A DNA stretch of 64,000 bases from an uncultured Spirochaetota bacterium (lineage in GTDB: Bacteria > Spirochaetota > Brevinematia > Brevinematales > JAOACQ01), in assembly GCA_963783575.1 (NCBI GenBank), contig CAWAOD010000012.1, positions 1 to 64,000 on the forward strand, written 5' to 3'. Shown here piece after piece: positions 282 to 8,136 of the stretch (its first letter is position 1; each line of letters starts with the position of its first letter). The position numbers were made by a program, and so were the translations under genes. The notes under the pieces were generated by a model, which saw only the letters and a program-made list of their open reading frames with translations, ran no database searches and was not told the DNA's origin.

Positions 282-641
282 ATGCATGAATACCCTGTTA
301 CACAAAGGATCCTGCAGATCGCCGTAAAAACAGCCAATGAAAATCACGCCTCGAAAGTAACAAAAATCTCGCTTGTAGTCGGTGAACAATCCGGTTTTAT
401 CGGGGAATCCATTCAGATGTATTTTGACATATTATCCAGGGGCACTGTAGCCGAGGGAGCGGAAGTAATTATTCGCCCGGTCAGGTATAAATTAAAATGC
501 GAATCCTGCGGCAATTATTTTAGAAGGAAAAATTATTCCTTTATATGCCCAAGATGCGGCGGAAACGGTATTCCATCAGAAGTTGGTAAAGAGTTTTTTG
601 TTAAAAATATTGAAATTCTCGAATCGGAAAAAATGGAATAA
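282..641 (+). CDS. hypA: Hydrogenase nickel metallochaperone HypA
   Basis: N-terminal MHE Ni motif; CESC and CPRC zinc-binding pairs; 119 aa. Confidence 0.95.
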   Translation: MHEYPVTQRILQIAVKTANENHASKVTKISLVVGEQSGFIGESIQMYFDILSRGTVAEGAEVIIRPVRYKLKCESCGNYFRRKNYSFICPRCGGNGIPSEVGKEFFVKNIEILESEKME

Positions 642-678
642 ATATTAGTTAATTTTCATACTGAAATAAGAGGTTGTA

Positions 679-1341
679 ATGGCAAAGGAAACTATAGAAA
701 TAATGCAGGACATTTATGACGAAAATACAAAATTATCTGATAATATTCAATGGAAATTGACTGGCAAGAAAATTTTTTCCGTTAATATTCTTGGGGCACC
801 CGGTGTCGGCAAGACATCGGTGTTGATAAAACTTATCGATAAATTAAAACAGCCCGTTACTGTAATTGAAGGGGATGTCGAATCCGACATTGACACTAAA
901 ACCCTCCGCAATCTTAACATCCCCGCTTATCAGATCAATACTCATGGAGGTTGTCATCTCGATGCGCCGATGCTTTCAAAAGCAATTGACGAATTTCCAA
1001 TAAAGGAAAACAGCTTTCTTTTTATTGAAAATATAGGCAACCTAATATGTCCTGCCGAATTTGAAATCGGCGAACACATAAAGATACTGATTTGTTCCAC
1101 AACCGACGGGAGTGATAAACCTTATAAATACCCGCTTGCTTTTGAAAAGGCAAATGCCGTAATTGTAAACAAATCGGATTTACTTCCATATACCGATTTT
1201 AACAGGACTTTTTTTATTGAAGGGATAAAAAAACACAATAAAAATTCTGAAATATTTTTTACATCATCAAAGAATGATGATGGATTTGATGAAATAGCAA
1301 AATGGCTTTTAAAATATAAAACAAATATAATGGCGGTTTGA
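679..1341 (+). CDS. hypB: Hydrogenase nickel-insertion GTPase HypB
   Basis: GAPGVGKT P-loop, IEGD, GGCHLDA, ENIGNLICPAEF, DKPYKYP, NKSD. Confidence 0.95.
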   Translation: MAKETIEIMQDIYDENTKLSDNIQWKLTGKKIFSVNILGAPGVGKTSVLIKLIDKLKQPVTVIEGDVESDIDTKTLRNLNIPAYQINTHGGCHLDAPMLSKAIDEFPIKENSFLFIENIGNLICPAEFEIGEHIKILICSTTDGSDKPYKYPLAFEKANAVIVNKSDLLPYTDFNRTFFIEGIKKHNKNSEIFFTSSKNDDGFDEIAKWLLKYKTNIMAV

Positions 1342-1343
1342 AA

Positions 1344-2645
1344 ATGTGTTATGCAATACCCGGAAAGGTTACAGGATTTGAAAATAATAAAGTAATAGTT
1401 GATTATTTCGGTGAAAAGAAAAAGGCCATCAATGAATTCCATAATTTAAAGATCGGTGATTATATTTACGCGCAGGGAGGTTATGTCATCGATAAAATCC
1501 CGGCAAAAGAAGCCAGGCAAACATTATCATTATGGAAAGAGGTCTTTTTTGACCTTCAGGAAACAGATGTTAAGCTTTCCAGAATGGATACAGATGGAAA
1601 AAATATAGGAAAGAATGTTGTTCAGATCCTTGATAAAGCTACACAGGGAATATCATTAAAACAAAGCGAACTAAATGAATTAATTAATCTTAAAAAACCC
1701 GAAGAACTGGAAACGCTTTATCATTCCGCGAATTTTTTAAGACAGAAGCATCTTGGAAATTCCTGCTGTGTACACGGAATCATAGAATTCTCAAATTATT
1801 GTGAAAAAGCCTGCCAGTATTGCGGTATTTCCGGAATTGCAAAAAATATTGAACGCTACAGAATGACAAAAAATGAAATTGTCGATTGCGCTTATGAAGC
1901 GGTTTCAAGATATGGATTTAAAGCCCTTGTTCTTCAGAGCGGAGAGGACACTTTTTATTCACCGGATGATCTTGCCGAGATTATTTCGGAAATAAAAAAG
2001 AAAATGCCGGTACTGATCTTTATCAGCACCGGTGAAATAGGAATTGAAGGTCTTCAAAAACTTTACAACGCAGGCGCCAGAGGACTTCTGATGAGGTTTG
2101 AGACAAGTAATCCTGAGTTGTACTCAAAATTGCGGCCCGGGCAGAATCTTAAATCAAGGCTTGATCATTTGAAGGCGGCTTACAGGATGGGATATCTCAT
2201 CATAACCGGCGGGCTCATCGGTCTGCCGGGCCAGACTGAACAGGATTTGATAAACGACATTATTTTGACAAAAGAACTCCATACCGAAATGTACAGCTTC
2301 GGCCCATTCATTCCAAGCCCAAATACACTTCTATCAAAAGAAAAGCTGACCGATACGGATACGATACTCAAAGTACTGGCACTAAGCCGTATCATCGACC
2401 CCAAAAACGCTAAAATACTTGTTACGACAGGGTTTGAAACATTTGACAAAGATGCCCGCAGTAAGGGGCTTATGGCGGGAGCAAATTCAGTGATGCTTAA
2501 TGTAACCCCGGAAAGGTTTAAAAAGAACTATACTATTTATCCGAACAGGGCACATATCGATGAAAGCCTTGAAAGTCAGATCGATATAACACTTTCACTA
2601 CTTAAGAGCCTTGGAAGAGCGCCAACGGATTTAGGAATAGGCTAA
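1344..2645 (+). CDS. Fusion of a HypC/HupF-like domain with a HydE-like radical SAM protein
   Basis: ATG at 1344 gives MCYAIPGKV...VDYFG...GDYIYAQGGYVI (HypC pattern, about 70 aa), followed by CEKACQYC, LQSGED, GLPGQT, GPFIPSPNT and GANSVMLNVTP...YTIY (HydE/BioB-like). Confidence 0.85.
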   Translation: MCYAIPGKVTGFENNKVIVDYFGEKKKAINEFHNLKIGDYIYAQGGYVIDKIPAKEARQTLSLWKEVFFDLQETDVKLSRMDTDGKNIGKNVVQILDKATQGISLKQSELNELINLKKPEELETLYHSANFLRQKHLGNSCCVHGIIEFSNYCEKACQYCGISGIAKNIERYRMTKNEIVDCAYEAVSRYGFKALVLQSGEDTFYSPDDLAEIISEIKKKMPVLIFISTGEIGIEGLQKLYNAGARGLLMRFETSNPELYSKLRPGQNLKSRLDHLKAAYRMGYLIITGGLIGLPGQTEQDLINDIILTKELHTEMYSFGPFIPSPNTLLSKEKLTDTDTILKVLALSRIIDPKNAKILVTTGFETFDKDARSKGLMAGANSVMLNVTPERFKKNYTIYPNRAHIDESLESQIDITLSLLKSLGRAPTDLGIG

Positions 2646-4054
2646 AAATATAAATCCCTTTCGCCATTCTTAATTTTATCCAGGTTATCAATCATCTTTT
2701 TCTTTAGCTCCGGCTTTTCTATCCCGCCCAATATGGAATTGATTAACTTGAGACCCTTTACTTTTGTTTCCGGTTTTGCGTAATCCATAAGATATTCCTG
2801 GAATGTAAAAACACCGTTCGGCATGCAGAATTCTTTTATTAAACCGGGTTTTGCAAGATCCATGAAATCGTTCCCCACCCTGCCCTTCCGGTAACAGCCA
2901 GTGCAGAAAGAGGGAATATATCCCTGGTCTATAAGGTTTGAGATCACTTCATCAACTGAGCGGTGATCGCCAAGCGAGAACTGGCTCCCGGAATTCTCAT
3001 TCCCAGAATGGGAATAAGCCCCTGGGTTTGTTCTGGAACCAGCCGATATCTGGCTTATTCCATAATTGAAAAGCTCGGTCCTTAAAGTCTCGTTTTCTCT
3101 TGTGCTTAAAATCATTCCTGTATATGGAAGCGCAATTCTGATTATTGCAACAAGCTTTTTAAAATCCTTATCGCTCACAGGATAAGGAATGTGCGATGCA
3201 AGCGGTGCGTTTTGAGCCGGTTCAATCCTTGGAACACTGACGGTATGGGGTCCGCACCCGAATATTTTTTCAAGATGGCTCGCGTGTTCCATCATAGCAA
3301 GGACTTCAAAACGGTAGTCTGCGAGCCCGAATAAAGCGCCGATGCCTATATCATCGATTCCTCCGTCCATAGCCCTGTCCATAACAGTCAAACGGTATTC
3401 GTAATCGGATTTTGATCCGACCGGGTGGTATTTTTTGTATAAAACCGGATCATAAGTCTCCTGAAAACAAACATAAGTTCCGATTTTTTCCTTTTTTAAT
3501 GCTGCAAAACCCTCCTTTTCAAGAGGAGCAATTTCAACATTTATGCGCCTGATTGTACTAGTACCTGCCCGGGCTTTATAAGCCGTTCGAATTGCTTCAA
3601 AAAAATATTCAAGAGGATTCTCAGCATCTTCTCCGCAAAGCATTAATATTCTTTTATGTCCCTCGTTTAAAAGGGATACCACTTCCGAATCGATCTGCTT
3701 CATATTCAAAACCACACGCCGGAGTTCAAGATTATCTTTTCTAAAAGCACAGTATAAGCAATTATTGGAGCATTTATTGCCTATATAAAGAGGGGCAAAT
3801 AAAACAATCCTTTTACCGTATATTTTCTCTTTTACCATTCCGGCAGTTTTAAATATCTTTTTTATTTCAGTATCGTCCTGTAATCTCAACAATTTCGATA
3901 CATCAATCAGATCGAGGCCTTTCAATTTCAGAGCCTTGTTCAAAATCCCATCGACCTCAGCCTCCGAAGGCTCTTTACCTTCAATCAATTCATATAGTTT
4001 ATCCCTATCTATAAAATTATAATTTTTTAAATTATTATTTTTTGCCGCATTCAT
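2642..4054 (-). CDS. hydG: [FeFe]-hydrogenase H-cluster radical SAM maturase HydG
   Basis: FAPLYIGNKCSNNCLYCAF, FQETY, GPHTVSVPRIEPA and C-terminal CTGC-x22-C auxiliary cluster motif, which ThiH lacks. Confidence 0.92.
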   Translation of the reverse strand: MNAAKNNNLKNYNFIDRDKLYELIEGKEPSEAEVDGILNKALKLKGLDLIDVSKLLRLQDDTEIKKIFKTAGMVKEKIYGKRIVLFAPLYIGNKCSNNCLYCAFRKDNLELRRVVLNMKQIDSEVVSLLNEGHKRILMLCGEDAENPLEYFFEAIRTAYKARAGTSTIRRINVEIAPLEKEGFAALKKEKIGTYVCFQETYDPVLYKKYHPVGSKSDYEYRLTVMDRAMDGGIDDIGIGALFGLADYRFEVLAMMEHASHLEKIFGCGPHTVSVPRIEPAQNAPLASHIPYPVSDKDFKKLVAIIRIALPYTGMILSTRENETLRTELFNYGISQISAGSRTNPGAYSHSGNENSGSQFSLGDHRSVDEVISNLIDQGYIPSFCTGCYRKGRVGNDFMDLAKPGLIKEFCMPNGVFTFQEYLMDYAKPETKVKGLKLINSILGGIEKPELKKKMIDNLDKIKNGERDLYF

Positions 4055-4147: not shown

Positions 4148-5578
4148 TTAATCTCCCAATATCTGACCGATATAAATTCCATTAGCACCGGCCTGCATTA
4201 AACCCCGTGTTATACCCGCCCCGTCGCCGGCGACAAATAAATTTAAAATATTTGACTGAAAATATTGGTCAATATGTATAATATTGGAATAAAATTTAAC
4301 TTCCACACCATATAAAAGGGTTTCATTTCCGGCTACTCCGGGTACAATTGTATCAAGAGCCTCTATCATCTCTTTAATATCAAGCAAAATCCTGTAGGGA
4401 ATAACAAGGCTCAAATCACCCGGCAAAGCATCATTTAAAGTAGGTTCGATATTATTCCTTTTTAGACGTTCTATAGTTGTTCTCCTGCCTCTGCGAAAAT
4501 CACCATACCTCTGTACGATAATTTTATTACCGGCAAGCATATTTCCGAGGCCCGCTATATATTTCCCGTATTCGATCGGATTGTGAAAAGGCTTTGTAAA
4601 ATAATTCGAAACCAGGATGGCAAAGTTTGTGTTGTTTGATTTGAGCTCTTCTTTATAGCTATGGCCATTCACTACAGCCAGGCCAGGAATGGCATTTCCT
4701 GCAATTGAATCAGCATCTTGAATCGTGTCCGCAAACTTATTATCGTAATATTCCACTGAAACCATACCGGAAGGATTCTGGCAGAAAGTCCTGACTTTAT
4801 CGTCAAATGTGGGGGTATAAAAAATGAATTTACCCTCGTACAACGCTTCATTTATCACTTTCATAACTTCATTTCTGACTTCAACCCTGACTCCGATATC
4901 TACCGGTCCAACATCTGTCTCTATACTGAATTTATTGCAGATTTTTGACAGCCAGTCCGATCCTTCCCTGCCGACCGCAAGAACAACTCTATCTGCATAA
5001 TATTCTTTATCGGCAATTACACCCTGTATTGCGCCGTCTTTTATTATCAGGTCAGATACCGGATTTTTAAATGATAGTGAAATTCCCCTATCCAGCAAAT
5101 AATTTTGAATCTGTGTATAAATCTGGTAACTTTGCTCCGTTCCCAAATGCCTTATGGGACATTCAATCAGCCTCATATTGCTTCGAATCGCTTTTGTCCT
5201 GATTTCTTCAATCATTTCCGGATGATCTACACCGTAAACTTTTTTATCGGCATTGTAGGACAAATATATTTGATCCACATACCGGATTAACTCATTTGTT
5301 TTATCGAACCCGATATAACGCGGCAATTCGCCTCCAACATCGGCGGAAAGAGACAGCTTACCGTCGCTATAGGCCCCCGCTCCTGAAAACCCGGATGTGA
5401 TGCTGCAGGGGATGCAATTGGCGCACTGGCCTGTTTTTCTTTTAAGACAAATCCTATCCTGAATAGCCCTGCCTTTCTCCAGAACCAAAATTTTAAAATC
5501 AGGATGTTTTTTATTGAGCTCATAAGCCGTAAATATCCCCGCCGGCCCGGCTCCCACAATGATTACGTCATATTTCAT
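4148..5578 (-). CDS. NAD(P)/FAD-dependent oxidoreductase with N-terminal Cys cluster
   Basis: GAGPAG, C..C..C..C, GFSGAGAYSDGKL, GDGAGITRGL. Confidence 0.85.
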   Translation of the reverse strand: MKYDVIIVGAGPAGIFTAYELNKKHPDFKILVLEKGRAIQDRICLKRKTGQCANCIPCSITSGFSGAGAYSDGKLSLSADVGGELPRYIGFDKTNELIRYVDQIYLSYNADKKVYGVDHPEMIEEIRTKAIRSNMRLIECPIRHLGTEQSYQIYTQIQNYLLDRGISLSFKNPVSDLIIKDGAIQGVIADKEYYADRVVLAVGREGSDWLSKICNKFSIETDVGPVDIGVRVEVRNEVMKVINEALYEGKFIFYTPTFDDKVRTFCQNPSGMVSVEYYDNKFADTIQDADSIAGNAIPGLAVVNGHSYKEELKSNNTNFAILVSNYFTKPFHNPIEYGKYIAGLGNMLAGNKIIVQRYGDFRRGRRTTIERLKRNNIEPTLNDALPGDLSLVIPYRILLDIKEMIEALDTIVPGVAGNETLLYGVEVKFYSNIIHIDQYFQSNILNLFVAGDGAGITRGLMQAGANGIYIGQILGD

Positions 5579-7403: not shown

Positions 7404-8136
7404 CTATAAACTCCCATACCTTCTTTTTCTTTTTTGGAAATCATTTATCGCTCTGCAGAAATCTTTCGGTTTAAAATCGGGCCATAATTTTTTAGTAAAC
7501 CAGAATTCGGCGTAAGCTGACTGCCATATTAAAAAATTACTGATTCTTTGCTCTCCGCTTGTCCTTATAATCAAATCAACATCGGGTAAATCAGGATGAT
7601 AAAGATAATTTCCGAAATCCCTTTCCGTTAATTTGTCAATTTCAACACAATCATTTTTATAATCAGCCGAAAGCTTTTTAGCCGCATCCAGGATTTCCCT
7701 CTTCCCTCCATAATTAAAAGCAATATTTAACGTATAGGATTTACAATCTTTTGTTCTATCAATGGATTCTTTCAGCAATTTCAGCAAATCTTCGTTAAGG
7801 TTCTCATCAGTGCCGGTGATCATTAACCTTATATCATTCTTCAATAGAGTATCCGTGTATTCCTTAACAAGATTTTTAGCCAGTTCCATAAGAAATTCCG
7901 ACTTCATCCTGAGGCCTTTGCCAATTTTCAGTGGAAAACGCAAATACTGTAATATACTTAACCCCAATCTCCCTATTAAATTCTATAATATTTTTAAGGA
8001 CACGATAGCCTTTTTCATGTCCTCTTATTCTTGCAAGATCTCTTTTTTTAGCCCATCTCCCATTGCCATCCATTATTATAGCAATGTGACCGGGCAGGTT
8101 CATCTCATCTATTTCTATACCATTAAAATTCATCAA
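7404..8136 (-). pseudogene. uppS: Undecaprenyl diphosphate synthase split by a single extra base near 7896-7900 (probably a sequence error)
   Basis: HIAIIMDGNGRWA...FSTENWQRP in ORF 7876-8136; NYGG and IRTSGEQRISNFLIWQ in ORF 7404-7967; removing one base joins them. Confidence 0.85.

Follow-up and report, generated by a model that had tools for sequence, protein, structure and literature searches.

The first 64 kb of contig C12 from the genome of an uncultured Spirochaetota bacterium (assembly GCA_963783575.1), hereafter the window, carries a small gene cluster in which a protein joining a HypC domain to a HydE-like radical S-adenosylmethionine (SAM) domain follows hypA and hypB and faces hydG. 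This cluster appears to encode a hybrid, apparently undescribed route of [NiFe] hydrogenase maturation, and the present analysis concerns the fusion protein, its relatives and the genomes that carry them. The window begins at base 1 of the contig, and the source genome (G000) comprises 4.9 Mb in 18 contigs, with 89.85% completeness and 4.91% contamination.

Inspection of the open reading frames (ORFs) reveals three tightly packed genes on the plus strand between positions 282 and 2645, with hydG converging on them. The first, hypA (282-641, 119 aa), encodes the Ni metallochaperone and matches PF01155 at 99.2 bits and TIGR00100 at 88.9 bits (cut-off 88.1), while hypB (679-1341, 220 aa) encodes the Ni-insertion GTPase and matches TIGR00073 at 209.1 bits (cut-off 121.2). 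By tblastn, each is the sole copy in the genome. The third gene (1344-2645, 433 aa) encodes the fusion; its frame is open from 1338, and translation begins with the ATG of position 1344, two bases past the hypB stop, which gives a protein beginning with Met-Cys. On the minus strand, hydG (2642-4054, 470 aa) scores 503 bits on TIGR03955 against a cut-off of 312 and is the only HydG of the genome. The two stop codons overlap, that of the fusion (TAA) occupying 2643-2645 and that of hydG 2642-2644. ORFs and family profiles thus confirm the initial annotation, which had described hypA, hypB and one continuous ORF with a full hydG converging on it, and which had also stated correctly that no hypD, hypE, hypF, hydF or hydrogenase gene lies within the 64-kb window.

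The HydG protein contains a CX3CX2C motif at residue 95 and a C-terminal CX2CX22C motif at residue 384, and shares 63-74% identity with the HydG proteins of other Spirochaetota, including two without a match to the fusion. It is an ordinary single-copy spirochaete HydG.

The fusion joins a HypC domain to a HydE-like barrel

Profile searches divide the fusion into two parts. The N-terminus (residues 1-64, positions 1344-1535) matches the HupF/HypC family PF01455 at 44.7 bits against a cut-off of 28.5, and TIGR00074 at 42.5 bits, under its cut-off of 48. Residues 97-411 (positions 1632-2576) match the HydE model TIGR03956 at 245 bits, slightly under its cut-off of 254.6, and Radical_SAM (PF04055) at 66.2 bits; no NCBIfam model matches the fusion above cut-off. 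The description of the protein as a HypC-pattern N-terminus followed by a HydE-like radical SAM remainder is borne out by these scores.

An alignment of 44 homologous fusions forms the basis of both the invariance calls and the structural model. All 44 begin with MCYAIPG, and M1, C2 and Q44 are invariant. The HypC part can be aligned to the solved HypC structures 2z1c, 3vyr and 3d3r with Cys2 kept, and this alignment places Gln44 of the fusion at the conserved His of the GDW/YV-x-x-H-x-G motif of stand-alone HypC (H51 in E. coli). The AlphaFold2 model (predicted local distance difference test 92.5, predicted template modelling score 0.92) presents five strands and a long helix in the HypC fold, then two or three linker helices, then a TIM-type barrel; the latter score denotes a confident prediction of domain arrangement and nothing more. 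With Foldseek, the barrel superposes on HydE of T. maritima (3cix) at a root-mean-square deviation of 1.5 Å over 336 columns, with 39% identity and an E-value of 6.7e-32.

To describe the barrel at the level of residues, 26 fusions were compared with 21 canonical HydE proteins, using T. maritima HydE numbering transferred through the alignment. Both groups share the radical SAM motif Cys153-x3-Cys157-x2-Cys160 (positions 1800-1823), Met316 (equivalent to M224) and Thr361/362 (equivalent to T268/T269). The fusions replace R54 with His144, T134 with Phe226, D154-R155 with Arg246-Gly247, K309 with Arg402 and G272 with Glu365, whereas R54, T134, R155 and K309 are each conserved in at least 95% of the 21 canonical HydE proteins. 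PMC11826987 describes R54, T134 and R155 as contacts of the CN ligand in the dimerisation cavity of HydE, K309 as part of a radical relay and M224 as the residue that binds the Fe(I) intermediate. The fusions also possess a new Cys141-Cys142 pair, invariant in 26 of 26 and placed just ahead of His144 (Cys141-Cys142-Val-His144, positions 1764-1775), where the 21 canonical HydE proteins have V or F and an invariant R. Residues 142-148 form a strand in the AlphaFold2 model, and Cys142 and His144 should therefore face the cavity side as R54 does in HydE.

Two further observations on the protein were set aside. A 'TTGFET' stretch had been likened to the GFETT of HypD and was not used; both Thr are shared with canonical HydE (T268/T269). 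A predicted complex of the fusion (alignment A1) with HydG (alignment A2) returned a score of 0.00 with controls not run, and counts neither for nor against binding.

The fusion is a widespread family with its own clade

Among the matches listed by a whole-protein search are 120 full-length relatives at 59-69% identity, 118 of them with PF01455 as well as PF04055 and two, slightly shorter, with PF04055 alone. When residues 1-95 serve as the query against proteins of 238-758 aa, 398 clusters are retained from 413 candidates at E<=1e-5, so that the family holds at least 398. The same architecture occurs in 23 species genomes and in seven further Spirochaetota genomes. Because it recurs in other genomes and in these 398 protein clusters, the fusion is neither a misassembly nor peculiar to this assembly. 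Relatives are named 'biotin synthase', 'radical SAM protein', 'HydE' or 'HypC' in their source annotations.

A tree of the radical SAM part, built from the 26 fusions, the 21 canonical HydE proteins and three outgroup rows, places all 26 fusions in one clade apart from canonical HydE (Shimodaira-Hasegawa-like approximate likelihood ratio support 100, stem length 0.97), with phyla interleaved inside. For rooting, two HydG cores and a BioB-like ORF with a very long branch were used, which leaves unsettled where the root falls within HydE. Two other candidate outgroups, distant radical SAM paralogues on contigs C15 and C9 of the source genome, were considered and dropped. Judged by the tree together with the residue replacements, the HydE-like domain of the fusion is a separate, remodelled clade and not ordinary HydE.

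Longer relatives extend the architecture. Among 26 of these, 20 contain HypC and radical SAM domains, 19 of them with BATS. Each of the six long HypC-bearing relatives scanned ends in a full HydG (489-635 bits), and these HypC-HydE-HydG triple fusions connect HypC, the HydE-like domain and HydG in the Rosetta-stone sense. At locus L082, fusion and HydG form a single 886-aa protein inside a [NiFe] operon. Among metagenomic proteins there are also canonical HydE-HydG fusions without a HypC domain (P0220-P0223, 803-847 aa) and HydE-HydF fusions (P0224-P0225, 769-771 aa).

The fusion accompanies [NiFe] hydrogenases in genomes without HypD

For the phylum of the window, 151 evenly drawn Spirochaetota genomes were searched. 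A [NiFe] large subunit over cut-off is present in 59, and of these 50 have HypD and no fusion, eight have the fusion and no HypD, none has both, and one has neither (G128, 80% complete, 770 contigs). The 92 genomes without a [NiFe] large subunit all lack HypD and the fusion. All eight carriers possess one HydG, at least one HydA and a canonical HydE, and none of the 58 remaining genomes with HydG in the sample has the fusion. HypE and HypF over cut-off were found in none of the five spirochaete carriers tested. G089, from the family of the window itself, has HydA, HydE and HydG and lacks both [NiFe] and the fusion, while HypD was not found in the carrier G162 (two contigs, 94% complete). As a control, the hidden Markov models (HMMs) recovered HypD, HypE and HypF in all four control genomes that have them. 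This complementary distribution indicates that the fusion follows [NiFe] hydrogenases lacking HypD, and not [FeFe] hydrogenases.

The 23 species genomes, drawn largely from other phyla (Margulisiibacteriota/Saganbacteria/WOR-1, Omnitrophota, 'Planctomycetales', one spirochaete and one deltaproteobacterial metagenome-assembled genome, MAG), present the same association. A [NiFe] large subunit is found in 23 of 23 and HydG over cut-off in 21 of 23. HypD, HypE over cut-off and HypF each occur in 1 of 23, the carrier of all three being a single MAG, G013. The fusion is thus far from always accompanied by hypCDEF, whose constant presence, together with hydAEF and without a link to hypAB, the initial annotation had named as telling against its reading; HypD appears in 1 of these 23 and in none of the eight carriers of the phylum sample. 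HydA is present in 8 of 23 (absent from 15) and HydF likewise in 8, and neither was found in 14. In twelve genomes the fusion is accompanied by HydG and [NiFe], and HydA, HydF, HypD, HypE and HypF were not found; one of them is G001, a single 1.67-Mb contig titled 'curated_complete'. At C8:12092-13417, G013 encodes a large subunit of the [NiFeSe] type whose gene contains one in-frame TGA.

The fusion often lies among [NiFe] and HydG genes

Thirty loci were examined: 23 from the species genomes, six from Spirochaetota and the window itself. In 20 of them the flanks examined contain [NiFe] structural genes, HycI, HypA/B or HydG, and several gene orders recur. In L028, L033-L036, L039, L040 and L042, a Fer4_22 subunit, an FAD/NAD subunit, a small subunit and a 441-aa large subunit are followed by HycI, a short HypA, the fusion, Rex and HydG; the beta-gamma-SSU-LSU-HycI-HypA-fusion-Rex-HydG clusters of L028 and L036 are examples. 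A second order runs from group-4 small and large subunits through a ferredoxin and HypA to the fusion (L044, L046, L047), and a third from an Mrp/Mbh cluster through a ferredoxin (Fer4), HycI and HydG to the fusion (L048, L049), in genomes with no HydA or HydF found. In L083, which belongs to a more distant subfamily, fusion and HydG have the gamma gene on one side and the small-subunit gene on the other. The flanks of the 23 species-genome loci yielded no HydF gene. The link to hypA and [NiFe] maturation made by the initial annotation is therefore matched in other genomes, where [NiFe] hydrogenases, HypA, HycI and HydG recur in gene order with the fusion.

The hydrogenases and HydG proteins of the carriers look functional from their motifs: RxCGxCxxxH and DPCxxCxx[H/R] are kept in all 15 large subunits checked, and both Cys motifs are kept in 22 of 22 HydG proteins. 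A Rex-type redox-sensing repressor (CoA_binding and Put_DNA-bind_N) often lies 3' of the fusion and at several loci stands between it and hydG (L028, L033-L036, L040, L042, L045). The group-4 small subunit (Oxidored_q6) at L044:4983-5903 on the plus strand carries a C-terminal GNAT acetyltransferase domain. An FAD-dependent oxidoreductase upstream of hydG in the window (4148-5578) was rejected as a conserved partner: next to HydG in G001 and G003, the FAD proteins are members of another family and have the Rossmann motif alone in common with it.

The source genome has two [NiFe] clusters and a complete [FeFe] set

Profile searches of the source genome locate two group-4 [NiFe] clusters outside the window. 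The first, on contig C13, is formate-hydrogenlyase-like; directly after it come canonical hydE (340.3 bits), an ammonia-lyase-like gene and hydF (469.2 bits), and the one HydA of the genome lies on the same contig. In L020:3325-19146 of this contig, hydE and hydF come directly after genes for a molybdopterin subunit of the formate-dehydrogenase type and for a group-4 [NiFe] hydrogenase whose large subunit is a 30-kDa/49-kDa fusion (563 aa), so that [NiFe] structural genes neighbour [FeFe] maturase genes. The second cluster, on contig C14, is Mrp/Mbh-like and includes a HycI protease (L023:11768-12262, PF01750 73.6 bits). Both large subunits keep RxCGxCxxxH and DPCxxCxxR and have C-terminal tails. 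With canonical hydE, hydF and hydA on C13, the HydG of the window probably serves the [FeFe] system as well.

The HypA, HypB and endopeptidase part of the canonical Hyp set is thus present in this genome, and the HypD/E/F part was not found: at 89.85% completeness it has no profile match to HypD, a best HypE match of 43 bits against a cut-off of 251.6 and a best HypF match of 133 bits against 466. The only HypC match is the fusion. A 537-aa protein on contig C9 (L006:997-2610, plus strand) contains only the Kae1-like carbamoyltransferase domains of HypF (PF22521 98.3 bits, PF17788 37.8 bits), without the acylphosphatase, zinc-finger and YrdC parts. Similar Kae1-like-only matches (124-128 bits, TIGR00143 positions ~380-739) occur in four of five spirochaete fusion genomes, whereas 22 of the 23 other-phyla carriers have none at E<=1e-20.

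Other features of the window and genome

A Sigma-70-like promoter match (TTGACA-17-TATTAT, 11/12) lies upstream of hypA at 160-188 on the plus strand. It is a consensus match only, and since 24 such sites are found against 20.1 expected in shuffles, it is no sign of function. On the minus strand at 7404-8136, an undecaprenyl-diphosphate-synthase-like gene seems split in translation between overlapping ORFs at 7876-8136 (86 aa, with DGNGRWA) and 7404-7967 (187 aa). The ammonia-lyase-like gene (Lyase_1) between hydE and hydF on C13 is likewise split on the plus strand, into L020:16549-17145 and L020:17142-17636 (profile positions 31-172 and 178-311), by a frameshift or an assembly indel. Together the two split genes hint at indel errors in the assembly.

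A proposed HydG-fed route of [NiFe] maturation

On the strength of these comparisons, we consider it likely that the hypA-hypB-fusion operon and the facing hydG constitute a maturation set for the two group-4 [NiFe] hydrogenases, in which HydG and the fusion would replace HypC, HypD, HypE and HypF. PMC11826987 gives [Fe(Cys)(CO)2(CN)] as the product of HydG and describes attack of the HydE 5'-deoxyadenosyl radical on its cysteine sulfur. In the proposed route, HydG would cleave tyrosine and make this synthon, chemistry that is established for the enzyme, and the synthon would enter the HydE-like barrel of the fusion and undergo radical SAM attack on the cysteine sulfur as in HydE, a step we infer from the retained SAM cluster, Met316 and Thr361/362. 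The resulting Fe(I) unit would not be dimerised for HydF, the CN-holding residues R54, T134 and R155 and the relay Lys309 being replaced. A mononuclear Fe-CO/CN unit may rather be caught by Cys142/His144 and passed to Cys2 of the HypC domain, which would load it into the apo large subunit. HypA and HypB would then add Ni and HycI would cut the C-terminal tail, both of which are established roles of these families. The single spirochaete HydG would feed both the fusion and the canonical HydE/HydF/HydA system on C13. The change from His to Gln44 would fit a HypC domain relieved of binding CO2/Fe itself. The proposal of the initial annotation, that HydG and the HydE-like domain may supply an Fe-CO/CN unit to the tethered HypC and bypass HypDEF, is accordingly the reading best supported by the comparative data.

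A more far-reaching version would make the module a second pathway complete in itself, with tyrosine, via HydG, as the source of every CO and CN ligand; the barrel would act as radical enzyme and HypD-like scaffold, Cys142/His144 and Cys2 would hold the iron, and the ligand set of the matured enzymes may be non-canonical, for example Fe(CO)2(CN). We regard this version as possible and rather unlikely.

Several points weigh against a HydG-fed route. Its support is wholly comparative, and the HydG synthon carries (CO)2(CN) where the canonical [NiFe] iron carries (CN)2(CO), a difference for which the proposed route does not account. G013 carries the fusion and a full HypD/E/F set but lacks HydG; as that fusion sits on a contig of 3 kb, this may be a case of mis-binning. 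The eight spirochaete carriers come from only five families and are not independent, and since all eight also have HydA and canonical HydE, the mere presence of HydG in them does not tie it to [NiFe]. Most genomes are MAGs, the source genome is 89.85% complete and the window lies at a contig end, so that absence of HypDEF means 'not found' only. No hydrogenase-related neighbour is seen at 10 of the 30 loci (L027, L029, L030, L032, L038, L041, L071-L074), several of which are short-flanked, and four of the six loci from the phylum of the window are among them. HypB was rejected as a universal partner of the fusion, being over cut-off in only one of five HydA-less fusion genomes tested.

Four other explanations were weighed. 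The fusion could be a [NiFe] maturation factor for which HydG is not the partner in this organism: its HypC domain would carry iron, its radical SAM domain would make or modify something else (for example CO alone, or a modified large subunit), the CN source would be unknown, and hydG would serve [FeFe] alone and face the fusion by chance. HydA and canonical HydE in all eight spirochaete carriers do explain HydG without the fusion, other Spirochaetota have hydG beside canonical hydE and far from the fusion, and the ligand count of the synthon mismatches the [NiFe] site. Yet a full HydG is retained in the 12 other-phyla fusion genomes with no HydA or HydF found, HydG adjoins the fusion inside [NiFe] operons and joins it in the triple fusions, and no other CN source (HypE/HypF) was found, which together leave this explanation quite unlikely. 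A further reading, on which the ligand count also bears, is that the module assembles another kind of organometallic centre: a [NiFe] site with a non-canonical ligand set, or a cofactor for an enzyme encoded elsewhere. The change of the HypC His to Gln44 and the new Cys-Cys-x-His would suit such a centre; the ordinary L1/L2 cysteine motifs and protease-cleavable tails of the large subunits beside the fusion, and the restriction of its conserved partners to [NiFe] hydrogenase genes, make it distinctly improbable.

HypD, HypE and HypF might also be present and missed through divergence or the incompleteness of MAGs, leaving the fusion as an accessory HypC paralogue like HybG/HupF with an extra enzyme domain. 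Such oversight is hard to reconcile with HypD in 50 of 51 fusion-less [NiFe] genomes against none of eight with the fusion, when both groups come from one sample and are comparably complete, with the failure to find HypD in the 'curated_complete' G001 or in G162, or with recovery of HypD/E/F by the HMMs in four of four controls. We therefore judge it highly unlikely, even allowing for the 89.85% completeness of the source genome, the predominance of MAGs among the others, the HypDEF of G013 and the Kae1-like-only HypF protein in the source genome and four of five spirochaete fusion genomes. Scarcely credible, finally, is a specialised HydE isozyme for [FeFe] maturation whose HypC-like oligonucleotide-binding (OB) fold would be merely a carrier or docking element unrelated to [NiFe]. 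The best family match is indeed HydE (245 bits), the fold is that of HydE, NCBI often names relatives HydE, and hydA, hydE and hydF are present in the source genome. An isozyme of this kind would nevertheless be missing from 58 other HydG-bearing Spirochaetota and present only with [NiFe] and no HypD; 15 of the 23 other-phyla carriers have no HydA, no HydF lies in the flanks of the 23 loci, and the residues of the HydE dimerisation cavity are replaced.

Implications and comparison with known systems

If HydG and the fusion do replace HypC, HypD, HypE and HypF, whole lineages (Margulisiibacteriota/Saganbacteria, Omnitrophota and several spirochaete families) would make [NiFe] enzymes via radical SAM enzymes of the [FeFe] type, with a testable tyrosine-based source of CO and CN. 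A two-gene cassette, together with HypA/B and a protease, might then serve for heterologous [NiFe] production. Fusion genes named 'biotin synthase', 'HydE' or 'HypC' would need re-annotation; HydG/HydE would no longer be a sign of [FeFe], nor missing HypDEF a sign of a dead [NiFe] enzyme. Were the complete second pathway true, the [FeFe] and [NiFe] machineries would share a working intermediate, and the origin of anoxic CO in these lineages would have an answer. The window itself contributes an operon linking the fusion directly to hypA and hypB, the presence of the fusion alongside a full canonical HydE/F/G/A set in one genome, and a clean complementarity with HypD inside one phylum.

HypCDEF is regarded as the general route to Fe(CN)2(CO). 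A 2019 paper on hydrogenases of Margulisbacteria/Saganbacteria contains no Hyp or Hyd maturases in its main text. A protein fusing HydE to HypC, described as unusual, is mentioned in one sentence for the [NiFe] operon of Ca. Centrionella anaeramoebae, within a 'full maturation machinery' (bioRxiv 10.64898/2026.04.11.717937). That protein has the same architecture as the fusion described here, in a [NiFe] operon with HybD, HypA and HypB; unlike the present analysis, the preprint sentence proposes no pathway, and its main text does not name HydG, HypD or radical SAM. In the literature searched, which left most subscription journals and preprint supplements outside, no proposal that HydG or HydE acts in [NiFe] maturation was found.

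HypX belongs to an unrelated family and works with HypCDEF rather than in its place. As an aerobic accessory enzyme of [NiFe] maturation that supplies CO (PMC6802093), it is a precedent for drawing a diatomic ligand of the [NiFe] iron from an alternative enzyme. The fused [FeFe] maturases HydE-HydG and HydE-HydF resemble the fusion as natural joins of consecutive maturases. They differ in having no HypC domain, and P0220 scores 397.9 bits on TIGR03956, well above the cut-off.

In canonical genomes, hypC-F normally sit beside hypA, hypB, HycI and the [NiFe] structural genes, and the CN ligands of [NiFe] enzymes come from carbamoyl phosphate through HypF and HypE. The fusion resembles the HypC-HypD-HypE-HypF system (E. 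coli, T. kodakarensis; 2z1c, 3vyr-3vyu) in that its N-terminus matches HypC on PF01455 (though under the cut-off of TIGR00074) and begins Met-Cys, and its gene sits with hypA, hypB, HycI and [NiFe] genes. It departs from that system in having its HypC joined to a 340-residue enzyme, with Gln44 in place of His and no HypD/E/F found, and its CN would come from tyrosine via HydG, not from carbamoyl phosphate via HypF and HypE. With the HydG-HydE-HydF maturation of the H-cluster (T. maritima HydE 3cix, 7o1o, 8qmk), it has in common a full HydG, a barrel within 1.5 Å, the SAM cluster and the equivalents of M224 and T268/T269. In contrast to that system, its radical SAM part forms a separate clade under the HydE cut-off, R54/T134/R155/K309 are replaced by H/F/G/R, a new Cys-Cys pair is present, and HydF and HydA appear dispensable, neither having been found in 12 of the 23 carriers that keep HydG and the fusion with [NiFe].

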